Part shown: one piece after another, positions 823-25,768 of the stretch
Numbering within the stretch: the first letter of the stretch is position 1
Layout of the letters: each line of letters starts with the position of its first letter
UHGV virus genome: UHGV-0259485
Length of the DNA: 28,703 nucleotides
Reading direction: 5' to 3' (one strand)
Origin: a virus
The notes under the pieces: generated by a model
Databases searched by the model: none
What the model saw: the letters and a program-made list of their open reading frames with translations, nothing else
What the model was told of the DNA's origin: nothing
Position numbers and translations under genes: made by a program

Positions 823-1746
823 TCAGTAGTTATGTACTGAAGGAGGTAATTCTTTATTCTTAAGTCTCATCCATGCGGAAAGATTCGTTGGTCCGTCTGG
901 CTCATTAATATCAACATCTCGTGTATGGTTGATTAAAACATCTCTCGCCATATCGATAATACGGGAGAACTCATAACCGCAGTCATGACATCTGCCGGAA
1001 TAGTTCGATTGAATTTGTTTTAGCGCCGGATACAGTTCGCGGAATAATGCCTGTGAGCGGTTGGCATAATCCCATAACCATACAAGGCTGTTTGCTTCTT
1101 TTGCAGAAAGCTCGTTTGCTTTCTTCTCTTGTTTGCCAATGAACTCACCTTCAAGTGGAACTCGAGCTGCAAGTGATAGTGCTTCGGTAAACTGCTCCTC
1201 ACTGATCTCTTTGTACGAACATCCAAAATGGGATTTCAGTGACGACCACATGGTGATCATCGCCTTAGCCTGTTTTTCTTTTGGAAGAGACTGACCGCGA
1301 CTCATGACGAGTTGTTTAATGGCTTCCTGCTGTTCAGTGGTGATTTTCCCCGGCAATGCCTTTTTAGCTTTGCGCGGGTTAACTACATGGCCTTTAGTCC
1401 AGTATTCGTAGAGCACATCGTCACACTCTTCCTGATACTGGATTACCTTGTCGCGGATTTCAGGGCGGACTTTGTTTGGCTGAATGCTTGAAAGCCAAGC
1501 CGCAAACTTACGAAAGGCAAGGCATATCATTAACTGTTTACCGCCAGCAGAAGGTATTTCGATTTCCGAAATACCTTTGACAAATCTCTGTTTTAATTTA
1601 ACAAATTGAGCAGCCCAAACCATACCCATGCCTTCTACAACGGGTTTCATAGGAACGTAAGGTTCATTGTTAATGCTGACCAAAAAGAGATTTGTTCCGT
1701 GGAATGGAACGTTGATTGTATGTTCTGCAATTGCTACACTCGTCAT
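823..1746 (-). CDS. ant: Phage antirepressor (AntA N-terminal domain / KilAC-type)
   Basis: 307 aa; N-terminal INVPFHGTNLFLVSINNEPYVPMKPVVEGMGM antirepressor motif; sits between arc-like gene and tailspike as in P22 immI. Confidence 0.8.
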   Translation of the reverse strand: MTSVAIAEHTINVPFHGTNLFLVSINNEPYVPMKPVVEGMGMVWAAQFVKLKQRFVKGISEIEIPSAGGKQLMICLAFRKFAAWLSSIQPNKVRPEIRDKVIQYQEECDDVLYEYWTKGHVVNPRKAKKALPGKITTEQQEAIKQLVMSRGQSLPKEKQAKAMITMWSSLKSHFGCSYKEISEEQFTEALSLAARVPLEGEFIGKQEKKANELSAKEANSLVWLWDYANRSQALFRELYPALKQIQSNYSGRCHDCGYEFSRIIDMARDVLINHTRDVDINEPDGPTNLSAWMRLKNKELPPSVHNY

Positions 1747-1809: not shown

Positions 1810-1950
1810 TCAACTTTTTAGGCTGCGAATAAGACGCTGCACTATTTCTGAATTTAAAGACCTGCCCTCCTCCTTAGCCTTTTCCTTCAATTTTTCTTTA
1901 ATCTCTGGCGGGATACGAATCCCTAATGGAGCGATGTCTCTAACTTTCAT
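1810..1950 (-). CDS. arc: Arc-like ribbon-helix-helix repressor (46 aa)
   Basis: Below ORF-track size cutoff. Hand translation MKVRDIAPLGIRIPPEIKEKLKEKAKEEGRSLNSEIVQRLIRSLKS with RHH pattern (LGIRIP...GRSLNSEIV); AAGGGG RBS; directly upstream of ant. Confidence 0.6.
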   Translation of the reverse strand: MKVRDIAPLGIRIPPEIKEKLKEKAKEEGRSLNSEIVQRLIRSLKS

Positions 1951-19703: not shown

Positions 19704-20246
19704 TTAATTGGTGAGTCCGGGGATTACGGTTTGCCCGTGCTGTTCAAGGCGTTCAATTCTCGCCAGTAGCTGAGGCTTCTTAATTTTTCCCCAGCGATTG
19801 AGCAGACGACCTGACATGCTGGCAACATCCTTCTCTTTCATGTACTCCAGCATTACGGCATTTCTCTCTTCTTCAAATTGACGATGACCAACCTGAAGCA
19901 TGGCGTACATCCAGTTAAATGCGTTGATGTAAGCAATTTTGATACGCATTGCTTCTTTTTTGGTGTAGGACATAACCAAAAGCATCAACCCATCCTTACG
20001 GAGACGGTAGAATTTTTGCGGCTTACCATTCTGTAACTCATTGTTTTTATAGCAAAGCTCAAAGTTGAGCTTTGTATCAAACTCAGGAGGGCAAGCTTCT
20101 ATGGTTCGCTCAATGTCACGGACTACGTTCTTCGGCAGCTTTCCAAATGCTTTTGCCACCATAAAAGAATCTGTAACCGGATCGTTGTTTGCTACAAAAA
20201 TTAGGTCTCTGAAATCTATATCGTTAACAACGGTTGGGTAGTTCAT
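19704..20246 (-). CDS. rha: Rha-family phage regulatory protein (start refined to ATG 20246)
   Basis: MNYPTVVNDIDFRDLIFVANNDPVTDSFMVAKAFGK... Rha-like N-terminal domain; located after the lysis cassette as P22 orf201. Confidence 0.65.
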   Translation of the reverse strand: MNYPTVVNDIDFRDLIFVANNDPVTDSFMVAKAFGKLPKNVVRDIERTIEACPPEFDTKLNFELCYKNNELQNGKPQKFYRLRKDGLMLLVMSYTKKEAMRIKIAYINAFNWMYAMLQVGHRQFEEERNAVMLEYMKEKDVASMSGRLLNRWGKIKKPQLLARIERLEQHGQTVIPGLTN

Positions 20247-20389
20247 TGCGTCTTTACCTTTTAGAAAGTGAGCCTGTCTCACAGAAAAGCCGCCCGAGAG
20301 AGGTCGCCACCTATAACGGCATTTCTCAGGCTCGCTTACTGAAAGGCTCTCGTTAATATGCGCGTGAGATGCGCGTTTACTGCGGACAT

Positions 20390-20412
20390 AAAAAAGCCCC
20401 GCATCGCGAGGC
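20390..20412 (-). terminator. Rho-independent terminator after Rz/Rz1
   Basis: Minus-strand RNA GCCUCGC-GAU-GCGGGGC followed by U6; ~30 bp downstream of Rz stop. Confidence 0.6.
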
Positions 20413-20444
20413 TCATTAAATGGACTTTGTGATTTGCAAAAAAA

Positions 20445-20882
20445 TTATTTCAGGCATTGCGTCCTGATGTATTCCTGCAGGTAGTTAACCTGCGCGGTTA
20501 TCTTGTCGATTCCACTTCGGAGACGGTAATAATTGAGTTCAGCATCTGCTGTAAGTCTTGGGCTTTCTCCATCGCCCATGCTGCTGGCTCCGGTCGTTGA
20601 CTTTGCACAGGTGGCGGCGACTTGCAGGCGCTTACGACCAGCAGAAACATCAGCACGGAGACTTTCGATAGTCGCGTTAGCATCAGCAAGCTCCTTTGTG
20701 TATCTGGCGTCGAGTTCTGCTACATCACGTTGACGCTTCTGCATATCAGCGATGATGGATGTGGCTTTATCGCGCTGCTCTTTGTAGGTCATGGCGTTAT
20801 CACGGTAATGATTCAGCCCCAGACTAAGCGCACCACAGGCCACCAGCAGGGCAATGATGACCACGCACAGTACGCGGTTCAT
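20445..20882 (-). CDS. Rz i-spanin (145 aa)
   Basis: N-terminal TM helix then coiled-coil periplasmic domain; last gene of the lysis cassette. Confidence 0.8.
   Translation of the reverse strand: MNRVLCVVIIALLVACGALSLGLNHYRDNAMTYKEQRDKATSIIADMQKRQRDVAELDARYTKELADANATIESLRADVSAGRKRLQVAATCAKSTTGASSMGDGESPRLTADAELNYYRLRSGIDKITAQVNYLQEYIRTQCLK
20498..20689 (-). CDS. Rz1 o-spanin lipoprotein embedded in Rz in the +1 frame
   Basis: Signal peptide with lipobox (LLVVSAC) then Pro-rich KSPPPVQSQRPEP; entirely inside Rz. Confidence 0.75.
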   Translation of the reverse strand: MLMLTRLSKVSVLMFLLVVSACKSPPPVQSQRPEPAAWAMEKAQDLQQMLNSIITVSEVESTR

Positions 20883-20883
20883 T

Positions 20884-20982
20884 TCACCACCAGCGTATCT
20901 GACCGATGAAATAACCGGAGGCCATAATCACAAACACCAGCCAGATAAGAATGAACTTCCAGGTGGATAATTTTTCAGCCAT
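20884..20982 (-). CDS. Unannotated 32-aa hydrophobic peptide ORF between endolysin and Rz
   Basis: Hand translation MAEKLSTWKFILIWLVFVIMASGYFIGQIRWW; GGGAG RBS upstream; stop 2 nt before Rz ATG. Below track cutoff. Confidence 0.3.
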   Translation of the reverse strand: MAEKLSTWKFILIWLVFVIMASGYFIGQIRWW

Positions 20983-21180
20983 CACTCGAATCTCCCGAAT
21001 CAGTTTGCTAAAATCAAACACACTTTCTCCTTTGACTTTTCCGGAGTCAGGAAACACAAAACCCCGCTTGGTGCCAACAAACGGGGTTTTTACTTTTATT
21101 CACTTACGTTTCGCCAGTTCGCAGGATTTCATGTTATCCGCCCGCGTGGCCATGCCTTATTTTTCAGCAAAATATTCTGC

Positions 21181-21714
21181 TTATCTGTCGATTCCCCAGC
21201 ACGCCAGCGCGCTCTCCTGGTCACGACGGGATACCTGACCATAACAGTTATTTGAGCGGATACGGCAGTCTCTGCCACCGTCCTTAATCCACCAGCGAAT
21301 CGCCTCACACGCTCCCCTGCGATCACCTGCATTAATTCGTTTATAAAACGTCGACGGGAAACACTTACCGGGACCAATGTTGTACGGACAGAATGACGCG
21401 ATCCCCGCTTTCTGGGGTTCGGTCAGCGGCACTCTGATGTTTTTCTCCACCCACGCCAGCGCTTTATCACGCTCAATGGCGTTAACCTGGTCGCATTTTT
21501 CCTTCGACAACTTCATGCCCGGAACGACAGGTTTGCCATCCACCAGGATGGCACCGCGGCAGATAGTCCAGATACCCGCACCATCACGGTATGCCGTGGT
21601 GTGGTTACCTTCCTTTTCATCCAGAAACTGGTCGAGAATGTCAGGCGCAGGCGCACCTGCGGCAATCAGCGCCAGAACGGCAGCCGACAGGCCGTATCTG
21701 ATTTTTGCGTTCAT
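21181..21714 (-). CDS. SAR endolysin (T4-lysozyme family, 177 aa)
   Basis: N-terminal weakly hydrophobic SAR segment (YGLSAAVLALIAAGAPA) then E-x8-D-x5-T catalytic pattern (EGNHTTAYRDGAGIWT); pairs with pinholin. Confidence 0.85.
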   Translation of the reverse strand: MNAKIRYGLSAAVLALIAAGAPAPDILDQFLDEKEGNHTTAYRDGAGIWTICRGAILVDGKPVVPGMKLSKEKCDQVNAIERDKALAWVEKNIRVPLTEPQKAGIASFCPYNIGPGKCFPSTFYKRINAGDRRGACEAIRWWIKDGGRDCRIRSNNCYGQVSRRDQESALACWGIDR

Positions 21715-21777
21715 GGATATTTATCAGGATTTATCGGTTTCTGCCCACGGACAGGTTTATCTGTTCCGGTCAGTGAA

Positions 21778-22131
21778 TTAAGGTTGTGATTCCGGTGGAG
21801 TCTTCAGAGAACCAGTAATTCTTCCCGGTAGCTTTCCTTTGTAGGTTATCAACACATCCTGCGCCTCTAAAATTACGGGGCGCTTTTCCGGCAACGGACC
21901 ATCCCCTTCACATAACCCGGCAGCAACATCCATGAAAAACTGCTTCGCCTGCTTTTTCGCCTCAGCTTCGTAAAACTCCAGCGTGGCACCTTCAGTACGG
22001 TCAAGACTAATCGCCACATCTGGCAACAACAGCGACGCTTGCCCGTCACCTTCCGGCTTCACAGTAACAGTAACCTTATCCCCGTAATTATTTATCCCCT
22101 TAACAACCAGTTCATATTTTTTATTCATCAC
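21778..22131 (-). CDS. Conserved protein between holin and endolysin (117 aa), possibly YdfR/DUF1327-like
   Basis: Position between S and R mirrors ydfR in the E. coli Qin prophage; N-terminus KYELVVKGINNYGDKVTVTV. Family name from memory only. Confidence 0.35.
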   Translation of the reverse strand: MMNKKYELVVKGINNYGDKVTVTVKPEGDGQASLLLPDVAISLDRTEGATLEFYEAEAKKQAKQFFMDVAAGLCEGDGPLPEKRPVILEAQDVLITYKGKLPGRITGSLKTPPESQP

Positions 22132-22132
22132 T

Positions 22133-22348
22133 TTACTCTCCCCGCGCCGCCTTACGCCGGTCCTCTCTGATTTTGAAATACAGGTTAGTCAGATATGTCA
22201 GCAGCCCAAACAGCAGACTCCCCAGCACGCCTATTGCCGCCCACTGAGACGGGGAAACCCTGTCCAGCAACTGCAGGAACCAGTAGCCCGTTCCCACCGC
22301 TGACGTGGTGTATGACACACCTGTTGTGATTTTTTCCATCTGGTACAT
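22133..22348 (-). CDS. Class II holin, S21-like pinholin (71 aa)
   Basis: Dual-start motif (Met1/Met4), two TM segments, C-terminal [15 protein letters not shown] matches phage 21 S. Confidence 0.85.
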
Positions 22349-25026: not shown

Positions 25027-25208
25027 GAATCCTCCCGGCCGGGATAATATTGTGAGTAAAATAAGGAGCGGGCTGAAGTCCGGAAGTTACAGGACAATGG
25101 CAGAAGAGAGACGACAGCCCGCAATTCGAAAAAGACCGCGCAGTTGCGCAGCCTTATGAATTCTGGTTAAAATCCATTCGATTATAAAAATGTATATCTC
25201 ATGCTGTT

Positions 25209-25234
25209 GCCCGAACCCACTCGGGCTTTTTTTT
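25209..25234 (+). terminator. Plus-strand terminator-like hairpin with no plus-strand gene upstream
   Basis: GCCCGA-ACCCAC-TCGGGC followed by T8; a second GC-rich hairpin (GCCCCTC-CGGA-GAGGGGC) at 25247-25264. Confidence 0.45.
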
Positions 25235-25479
25235 GCCCACAAGAAAGCCCCTCCGGAGAGGGGCTAAAGCCGCGTATCTGTATCATCATGCACATGATGC
25301 CGGGTGCCTCCCGGTGAGTTCAGTATCAGCACCTGAACCCGCACAGAAAGGATAAGGGTCGGTGACAAAACACCAGTTGCTGATTGCCCCTCCGCACAGG
25401 GGGATTCACCATGCCAGTTTCTTTTAACAAACTCCCCGCAAAACAGACAACTGTCAACCGTCTGAATTGTGAGACATTT

Positions 25480-25518: not shown

Positions 25519-25595
25519 TGGCGCGTTGTACTGGATTCGAACCAGTGACCGATTGCTTAGAAGGCAATTGCTCTGTCCGGCTGAGCTAATAACGC
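25519..25595 (-). tRNA. tRNA-Arg (anticodon UCU)
   Basis: Hand-folded cloverleaf: anticodon loop CTTCTAA, T-loop GGTTCGAATCC, encoded CCA; one A-C mismatch in acceptor stem. Third of the cluster, like argO in Stx phages. Confidence 0.75.
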
Positions 25596-25608
25596 AGGGT
25601 ACAGATAA

Positions 25609-25685
25609 TGGACCGCCATCGAGGACTCGAACCCCGCGCAACCAGCTTCGAAGGCTGGCGCTCTATCCTGATGAGCTAATGGCGG
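25609..25685 (-). tRNA. tRNA-Arg (anticodon UCG)
   Basis: Hand-folded cloverleaf: 7-bp acceptor stem, anticodon loop CTTCGAA, T-loop GGTTCGAGTCC, encoded CCA; unusual C1-G72. Middle gene, like argN. Confidence 0.7.
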
Positions 25686-25692
25686 TATGTGA

Positions 25693-25768
25693 TGGTGGCC
25701 CTTGCTGGATTTGAACCAGCGACCTGGCGATTATGAATCGCTCGCTCTCACCACTGAGCTAAAGGGCC
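25693..25768 (-). tRNA. tRNA-Ile2 (anticodon CAU, lysidine type) or tRNA-Met
   Basis: GGCCCTTTAGCTCAGTGGTGAGAGCGAGCGATTCATAATCGCC...CCA closely resembles E. coli ileX; anticodon loop TTCATAA. First of the cluster, like ileZ. Confidence 0.75.

Follow-up and report, generated by a model that had tools for sequence, protein, structure and literature searches.

The 28,703-nucleotide virus genome UHGV-0259485 (the whole stretch, called the window here, whose coordinates are used throughout) contains a conserved 45-codon gene, MFDFSKLIREIRVMAEKLSTWKFILIWLVFVIMASGYFIGQIRWW, between the endolysin and Rz genes of its lysis cassette. The gene lies on the minus strand (20884..21021), with a GTG start codon at 21021-21019 and a TGA stop codon at 20886-20884, and its product is a small hydrophobic peptide with one transmembrane (TM) segment. 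Our analysis leaves hardly any doubt that this open reading frame (ORF) is a real gene, and the 45-residue form is, with good confidence, the conserved one. We are more confident still that the gene, as judged from comparison of its relatives, belongs to a portable cassette with a structured leader. The first codons of the gene also appear to encode, in their synonymous sites, a promoter on the opposite strand, and we consider it somewhat probable that a corresponding antisense RNA exists. Together, these features lead us to suggest, tentatively, that the cassette may encode a silenced late membrane peptide with an antisense guard, and that the peptide would probably be membrane-toxic.

The case for a real gene comes from the pattern of substitution among relatives. 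The 45-codon frame is open and ungapped across seven genera, and the pairwise ratio of nonsynonymous to synonymous divergence (dN/dS) is 0.03-0.23, the first 13 codons included. In the seven-genera alignment, 6 of the 45 second codon positions are variable, versus 31 third positions, and the second position is invariant throughout the first 13 codons. Synonymous divergence is saturated in the TM part, and the amino acid pattern is kept as far as Pseudomonas phages, at about 50% identity. The frame is kept open under strong purifying selection across genera, and its conservation goes far beyond chance. The initial annotation of this DNA, which described a 32-residue ORF at this place, had named conservation of the ORF across related prophages and the synonymous versus nonsynonymous pattern in homologs as ways of judging it; the frame proves to be open in every lineage and the pattern fits that of a coding sequence.

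The frame kept open in all relatives reaches 13 codons upstream of the ATG from which that shorter ORF was read, so the 32-residue frame exists but is nested in the longer gene. All full-length Enterobacterales lineages, and likewise the Pseudomonas phage, have GTG at position 1 (two cases have TTG instead), and an ATG start is seen in a few distant or N-terminally rearranged copies. A Shine-Dalgarno (SD) sequence, AAGGAG (SD1; 21027..21032, minus strand), stands 5 nucleotides (nt) ahead of the GTG codon, and all full-length homologs retain an SD 4-6 nt ahead of a GTG or TTG codon.

The gene is annotated by RefSeq/PGAP, with the same coordinates, as a coding sequence for a 45-residue hypothetical protein (WP_000459345.1) in E. 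coli MS7163, to which the window is 100% identical, and the same accession is annotated in O145:H28 RM13514. The PHROGs profile phrog_6632, of unknown function, matches residues 1-45 along its 45 positions with E=1.2e-29, and matches the 32-residue core with E=5.5e-20. The earlier description of the ORF as unannotated therefore holds for many RefSeq genomes and most phage records, H-19B among them, but not for MS7163 and other genomes that carry the RefSeq entry, nor for PHROGs. The relatives identified by protein searches belong to E. coli, E. albertii, E. fergusonii and Salmonella, and scanning genomes at the species level extended the range to Citrobacter braakii, Edwardsiella ictaluri, Yersinia similis, Izhakiella, Sodalis, Trabulsiella and Serratia. 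A tblastn search of phage records found copies in Salmonella phages SPN3UB, FSL SP-016 and SEN34 and in Pseudomonas phages YMC11/02/R656 and D14H, and an exhaustive HMMER search of 1.84 billion proteins gave 41 representatives of 50%-identity clusters. No family was matched in Pfam (E<=0.1) or NCBIfam (E<=1), hence no Hok/Gef, Ldr, TisB, Ibs or holin family, and the PADLOC anti-phage defence models gave 0 families at E<=1. A match in the Protein Data Bank (PDB) to an ER helix translocase (E=0.018) was dismissed as noise from TM composition, and a literature search by peptide strings and WP accessions returned no match.

In every full-length homolog, the gene is preceded by the same series of elements: a terminator with an A-tract on one side and a T-tract on the other, a stretch of about 35 nt with a small hairpin (H2), and the SD with its GTG codon. 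The terminator, located by a terminator scan at 21058..21090, forms the left end of the cassette. It is a bidirectional intrinsic hairpin of 13 bp, rich in G+C, with T-runs on both strands, in agreement with the bidirectional hairpin that the initial annotation placed just upstream of the ORF; it shows compensatory changes in all full-length homologs, the Pseudomonas phage included, and its T-tails are comparable in both directions. H2 (21028..21052, both strands) has a lower stem (21028-21031/21049-21052) and an upper stem (21034-21039/21043-21048). In the mRNA, SD1 lies in the 3' arm of this hairpin and pairs with an upstream UCCU/UUCU, so that the ribosome-binding site of the GTG start is sequestered; on the other strand, H2 is the 5' stem-loop of the predicted antisense RNA described below.

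An RNAalifold consensus on 23 diverse copies recovers three helices, of 4 bp (lower stem), 5 bp (upper stem) and 9 bp (terminator). Over these 18 pairs, 94.4% of the cells are paired and 12 of the 18 pairs have double-sided changes (in H2, 4/4 pairs of the lower stem and 3/5 of the upper stem); none of 500 column shuffles scored as high, and slid controls were paired at 30-64%. A simple -35/-10 scan of 20300-21800 found no sigma-70-like site on the gene strand. Since no gene-strand promoter lies between the endolysin and the ORF, sense transcripts must originate in the late operon and pass through the terminator.

The portability of the cassette is apparent from the variety of its surroundings. 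About 170 loci were collected; most are near-identical E. coli prophages, so the counts given here are not frequencies. In about 128 of them, including all E. coli, Citrobacter and Edwardsiella loci, the order is endolysin, ORF, Rz, and this arrangement spans four endolysin groups that did not cluster with one another by sequence. In 27 other loci, among them those of Yersinia, Serratia and Salmonella phage SEN34, the cassette lies between gpV-like and gpW-like baseplate genes, and elsewhere it is surrounded by tail genes (Pseudomonas phage YMC11/02/R656), lies within a head module (L177), follows a portal gene (L172) or stands beside an antirepressor, making at least six kinds of genomic context. 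The sequence beyond the cassette differs between contexts, shared homology starting at the terminator, and the C-terminal RWW-stop is retained even in front of genes other than Rz that have an SD of their own. At one locus (L135, 2639-2660), the cassette is followed by the first bases of Rz (cATGAAC) and then by unrelated DNA and a fimbrial-like gene, which suggests that the cassette moved, or that Rz was replaced, through recombination at the Rz start.

The 5' part of the gene is unusual in its synonymous sites, which are near-invariant over codons 1-21 and saturated further on in a codon table of 21 lineages (some of the counts below are over 17). Mean synonymous divergence (pS) rises from 0.32 in codons 2-13 to 0.49 in codons 15-21 and 0.82 in codons 22-43. 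The frozen codons are D3 (GAT, 17/17), codon 4 (NTT, 21/21), S5 (AGC, 21/21), K6 (AAA, 19/21), E10 (GAG, 21/21) and R12, which is the rare codon CGA in 21/21; further along the gene, four different codons are found at R43, both possible ones at F23 and five at L25. On the other strand, the sequence of codons 6 to 3 reads TG-C-TAAAAT (with variants TAATAT and TAAGAT), and R12 supplies the TCG of a -35-like element. The frozen bases thus preserve an extended -10 on the opposite strand, from which we infer an antisense promoter within codons 3-13 (20986..21014, plus strand), made up of TCGAAT at 20986-20991, a 17-nt spacer that includes TG at 21006-21007, and the -10 TAAAAT at 21009-21014. The motif TGNTANNNT occurs at the same place in 17/17 lineages, compared to 0.07-0.13 per lineage under random synonymous recoding, and can be seen by eye in the distant copies L092, L171 and L172. 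In L175, Ser5 is replaced by Ile but the codon is ATC, and the third-position C, which gives the G of the antisense TG, is retained.

A transcript from this promoter is predicted to be a cis-antisense small RNA (sRNA) of about 80 nt (21021..21100, plus strand), consisting of a 5' segment complementary to the SD and the GTG codon, H2, an A-rich linker and the terminator with its U-tail. Its predicted fold has a minimum free energy of -23.2 kcal/mol (z = -3.3), and a covariance model (R1) scores 77.4 bits at the locus and 81.7 bits in a second allele of O157 type.

Several other sources of the freeze and of an RNA in this region were considered and set aside. A plus-strand promoter match at 20899-20928 (CTGACC-18-CATAAT), in the 3' end of the ORF, has a -10 that is not kept in homologs and is attributed to chance. 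An overlapping ORF on the opposite strand (20951..21238) crosses the terminator, and it shares its wobble positions with the sense frame, so that it cannot freeze synonymous sites. Sense-strand structure involving codons 3-13 is rejected by a leader z of 0.02 against shuffles and by the lack of a conserved partner. The PasA-D sRNAs are sited elsewhere, between the esterase and holin genes or in structural operons, and none of the R-Rz spacers checked has a peak in the EcOnc list of Tree et al., EcOnc11 lying after Rz and not before it. The Hfq-CRAC list of Tree et al. has no entry for the locus; the Sakai prophages looked at (Sp6, Sp10 and Sp15) are without this allele and have a different arrangement, so the list is uninformative here. 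No text bearing on the locus was found in the svsR paper.

The part of the freeze that the antisense promoter does not account for, at R9, E10 and codons 15-20, is explained by an internal initiation site. The nested 32-codon ORF, MAEKLSTWKFILIWLVFVIMASGYFIGQIRWW (20884..20982, minus strand), starts at Met14 with an ATG at 20982-20980, 9 nt after a second SD, GGGAG (SD2; 20992..20996, minus strand), and ends at the same TGA; these are the ATG, stop and ribosome-binding site of the initial annotation, all of which are present. Met14 is ATG in 21/21 lineages, and SD2 is preserved by codon choice across the codon table, R9 being always CGG or AGG and E10 always GAG. The gene therefore has two conserved in-frame predicted starts, 13 codons apart and each with an SD, and since the internal SD and ATG are conserved through codon choice, a 32-residue second product is likely also made.

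The 32-residue frame is, in addition, the minimal conserved core of the family. Only this core is kept in Serratia Ag1 (L011), in L125 and in the tandem copies of L122-L124, and natural deletions remove the terminator through the first 6-13 codons as one block, with the core spared. In L125 and L011, both in baseplate context, the deletions run from just past the stop codon of the upstream gene to codon 7 or 13, taking out the terminator, H2, SD1, GTG and the antisense -10 and leaving an ORF of 32-37 residues. In L122-L124 (about 2420-2790), a baseplate gene is preceded by two diverged tandem copies of the core, spaced 120 nt apart; the N-termini of both have been replaced, and a copy of the 5' RNA module is found about 120 nt upstream of the first (covariance model score 48 bits, L122 2220-2303).

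The peptide has one TM segment, at residues 24-42 of the 45-residue form (Kyte-Doolittle mean 2.13), and an AlphaFold2 model (pLDDT 84.7) has helices at residues 4-17 and 20-44, bearing out the single TM helix first predicted from the shorter ORF. Residues 4-17 form an amphipathic helix (hydrophobic moment 0.49), followed by a break at a Ser/Pro position. The N-terminal part carries charges of +5/-3 and the C-terminus is RWW, from which an N-in/C-out topology is predicted. At 45 residues the peptide falls within the size range of type I toxins (hydrophobic membrane peptides of fewer than 60 residues). It may be toxic or aid lysis, which we consider slightly less likely than not. The earlier suggestion of a membrane lysis regulator is thus borne out as regards the membrane, by the TM segment and the AlphaFold2 model, but its lysis part is weakened, given that the cassette is also found among baseplate, tail and head or portal genes.

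In the window, the gene lies in the 298-nt interval between endolysin and Rz, in a lysis cassette encoded on the minus strand. The cassette begins with its holin gene, of S21 type (22348..22133), followed by a gene of the DUF1327/YdfR family (22131..21778), another extra gene within the lysis cassette, which is placed between holin and endolysin. The endolysin is a phage lysozyme (21714..21181; Pfam Phage_lysozyme, 3.1e-24) that ends 88 nt ahead of the hairpin; from its hydrophobic N-terminus, we read it as an R21-like signal-anchor-release (SAR) endolysin. The Rz i-spanin gene (20882..20445; Pfam Phage_lysis, 7.5e-37) has Rz1 embedded in it (about 20498-20689, minus strand; Pfam Rz1, 2.4e-20), and a gene for a Rha/ORF11CD3 protein follows (20282..19704, minus strand). 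The Rz ATG is at 20882-20880, and a single base (20883) separates it from the TGA of the peptide, the close junction with Rz having been noticed already in the initial annotation. The Rz SD (GGTGGTGA), as read from the sequence, is made from the Trp-Trp-stop codons of the peptide. Lambda-type phages align to the query only from the Rz start onward. A strong terminator on the minus strand follows Rz at 20394-20414. EcOnc11, an Hfq-bound sRNA related to EcOnc10 and EcOnc12, is located just downstream of Rz on the opposite strand in Sakai Sp10 (Sakai 1946819-1946867).

The slot before Rz repeatedly hosts small TM ORFs, and three unrelated ones share it. A second allele, at L003 1641-1904 in E. 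coli O45:H2 and also in O157:H7 and O55:H7, has the same terminator, H2, SD and start (covariance model score as given above), and its frame stops after 7 codons; it is followed by an unrelated 37-residue TM ORF (WP_000675931.1, phrog_4493) that ends IRWW-TGA-N-ATG(Rz). This allele has an antisense promoter with a 10/12 match to sigma-70 (TGGACA-18-TATACT, 1788 to 1759) that is aimed at the terminator. The third small TM ORF, MGWLMISDKLITLVKSLCVLVGISFLVMLVAIFFSTAWRVLTLSGLVG, has 48 residues (ECs_5741, ECs_1966 and ECs_5713; phrog_4906) and follows an antirepressor gene inserted after the endolysin, at L179 3249-3395, L180 825-971 and L183 1787-1933, which correspond to Sp15, Sp10 and Sp6 of O157:H7 Sakai. 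Remote homology among the three was considered and rejected: no more than the last 14 or so residues of the 37-residue ORF align (hhalign probability 50%), and the 48-residue ORF gives no alignment.

The preferred model, to which the tentative weight given at the outset applies, is of a gene that would be built to stay silent unless strong late transcription passes through it. The antisense promoter would fire near the complement of the GTG codon (about 21021) and give rise to an RNA of about 80 nt that covers the GTG, SD1 and the hairpin region and ends at the bidirectional terminator. Made constitutively in the lysogen, this RNA would block the translation of leaky transcripts for the 45-residue form, or destabilise them, in the way that sar of P22 acts on ant and that Sok and SymR act on their toxins. 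During lytic growth, antiterminated late transcription would read through the terminator, override the antisense promoter and titrate the RNA, so that the peptide is made. It would then insert N-in/C-out and be membrane-active, probably depolarising or toxic. Where the gene is in a lysis cassette, its stop codon may be translationally coupled to Rz, and the peptide may help trigger or sharpen lysis, much as HokW of prophage Sp5 is reported to aid phage-mediated lysis (PMC8621323).

An extension of this model, which we regard as rather unlikely, takes the sRNA gene to be nested in the first 13 codons and the 5' leader. The RNA would cover the initiation region of the long form only and could set the ratio of long to short isoforms, in a holin/antiholin-like manner or as a toxin switch that times membrane damage in lysis. 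The promoter could then be seen as written in synonymous sites, and the terminator as doubling as an upstream insulator.

A number of observations weigh against an antisense-guarded toxic peptide. The freeze at R9, E10 and codons 15-20 is equally explained by the internal start site, and the simple -35/-10 scan did not flag the antisense promoter, since its -35 matches at 3/6 positions only. No Rfam family was found at the locus, and H2 pairing is 86% on the sense strand versus 91% on the antisense strand. As for the peptide, toxicity is argued from the layered repression alone, and no match to a known toxin, holin or defence family was found in Pfam, NCBIfam, PADLOC or PDB sequences. Variants with only the 32-residue form, unguarded by a terminator or an antisense unit, exist in L011 and L125, so the short form, at any rate, is tolerated in a late operon that lacks the guard. 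Finally, the gene has no promoter of its own, and its transcription comes through the terminator from the late operon, a point on which it departs from type I toxins.

One alternative keeps the peptide gene and dispenses with the antisense RNA. Codons 1-21 would be frozen by the needs of the sense strand, namely two initiation regions and A/U-rich unstructured starts, with the hairpin acting as an attenuator or mRNA stabiliser. This accounts well for R9 (CGG/AGG) and E10 (GAG), which preserve the internal SD, for the A/U-rich codons 15-20 just past the internal ATG, and for GAT at D3, TTT at F4 and AAA at K6, which end in A or T like many codons close to start sites; the sense strand folds into H2 as well, with SD1 sequestered in it, and the promoter was missed by the simple scan. 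It does not account for S5, where 21/21 lineages have AGC and none has AGT or TCN, and where the C persists even in the Ile codon ATC, giving the G of the antisense TG, or for R12, always the rare CGA, the sole Arg codon that gives T and G at -35 positions 1 and 3. The A-tract 5' of the hairpin, which would encode the antisense U-tail, is conserved, deletion variants lose the N-terminal codons along with the 5' block, and the second allele has an independent antisense promoter. With these points on the other side, we consider a purely sense-strand explanation unlikely. That the ORF is spurious, its conservation being due to DNA elements alone such as the terminator and the Rz ribosome-binding site, was allowed for in the initial annotation and might be thought of in view of its very short length and the many RefSeq genomes and most phage records that leave it out. 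The substitution pattern already rules this out, with a dN/dS of 0.03-0.23, second versus third position counts of 6/45 and 31, saturated synonymous divergence in the TM part, a frame open in every lineage, relatives at about 50% identity in Pseudomonas, and the 41 HMMER cluster representatives.

The remaining alternatives concern the function of the peptide. It might be a dedicated lysis accessory that modulates the pinholin, the membrane-tethered endolysin or the Rz/Rz1 spanin, with the Rz-coupled position being the point of the arrangement. The order endolysin, ORF, Rz at about 128 of some 170 loci, comprising all those of E. coli, Citrobacter and Edwardsiella and four endolysin groups, is in keeping with this, as are the stop codon 1 nt from the Rz ATG, the Rz SD formed by the Trp-Trp-stop codons, and the presence of two other unrelated small single-TM ORFs in the pre-Rz slot (37 residues, phrog_4493; 48 residues, phrog_4906). 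However, the same cassette lies among baseplate (27 loci), tail, head (L177) and portal (L172) genes, RWW-stop is kept where the next gene is not Rz and has its own SD, and the locus sample consists mostly of near-identical E. coli prophages, all of which makes a dedicated role in lysis quite unlikely. Less probable by far is a role in lysogenic conversion, with the gene as a moron that the prophage expresses, for example as a superinfection exclusion factor or a modulator of a host membrane protein. Such a role would suit a mobile cassette that sits between genes abutting in lambda and encodes a small inner-membrane protein like some exclusion factors; against it are the lack of a promoter in or upstream of the cassette, the lack of a match in PADLOC, and a terminator directly upstream, a sequestered SD and a weak start codon, which oppose constitutive expression.

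Among known systems, the closest working analogue of the proposed arrangement is sar/ant of phage P22, and the window itself contains a P22 immI-like region (823-1950). This region includes an Arc-like repressor gene (arc, 1950..1810, minus strand), a gene for a 307-residue antirepressor (ant, 1746..823, minus strand), sar RNA (Rfam RF00262, 1748-1815, plus strand, 84.6 bits) and its promoter Psar (TTGATT-17-TACACT, 1712-1740, plus strand), which lies within ant codons 2-12 and has its transcription start site at the ant start codon. Both arrangements have a promoter in the first 12 or so codons of the target, a transcription start at the start codon, and an RNA of about 70-80 nt, complementary to the target SD, with a small 5' stem-loop and a Rho-independent terminator between the upstream gene and the target. 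At the peptide locus this architecture is present as a prediction only. The two have no homology in sequence or by covariance model: the Rfam sar model has no match in 20700-21300 even at E<=10, and the model of the locus matches sar through the terminator alone (20 bits). The target here is also a 45-residue membrane peptide rather than a 300-residue antirepressor, and the promoter has an extended -10 and a weak -35, the RNA being predicted. In IS10, RNA-OUT has its promoter inside the 5' end of the regulated gene and is a stem-loop RNA of about 70 nt over the SD and start codon. The IS10 RNA-OUT/RNA-IN pair belongs to an unrelated element, however, and RNA-OUT is one long hairpin.

Type I toxin-antitoxin systems (hok/sok, symE/symR, ldr/rdl, zorO/orzO, and hokW-sokW of Sp5) resemble the cassette in having a small hydrophobic peptide with a single TM segment, a 5' structure that sequesters the SD, a prophage-borne location and a cis-antisense RNA over the initiation region, which is predicted here. 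Classical type I toxins carry their own promoter, and in this they differ from the present gene; the peptide, moreover, is not similar to any known toxin family, and the antisense promoter inside codons 3-13 and the conserved internal start are particular to it. The dual starts of holins (lambda S105/S107, phage 21 S68/S71) offer another parallel, in that a small membrane protein encoded in a lysis cassette would there too be read from two in-frame starts, whose products could differ in a charged N-terminal segment. In holins, however, the starts are 2-3 codons apart and not 13, whereas the present peptide has a single TM segment, matches no holin family, is encoded downstream of the endolysin and is also found outside lysis cassettes. 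A classical moron has its own promoter upstream and a terminator downstream, unlike the cassette, where the terminator is upstream and no sense promoter is seen. As in the morons lambda bor and lom and HK97 gp15, reportedly of the kind described by Juhala et al. 2000, an extra gene is present, at various sites, between genes that are adjacent or overlapping in relatives (lambda R and Rz).

Beyond the lysis cassette, Rfam identifies an AsxR-like anti-sRNA (25179-25231, plus strand), STnc100 (25235-25443, minus strand) and three tRNA genes (25522-25768, minus strand), which is typical of the late region of Shiga toxin (Stx) phages. No stx gene is listed in the annotated MS7163 stretch that begins in the SASA esterase gene upstream of the holin.

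About 870 of 5,426 complete E. coli genomes hold this stretch beside this endolysin/Rz type, and Stx phages such as H-19B are included. The peptide family is widespread and located in medically relevant prophages, and small TM ORFs before Rz are often left out by standard annotation of lysis cassettes. If the model is true, the cassette would represent a new family among the few antisense-controlled membrane peptides, as well as a compact case of a gene whose synonymous sites encode a promoter that regulates it. It would also provide a testable factor in lysis timing, and hence in the release of toxin and phage from Stx prophages.

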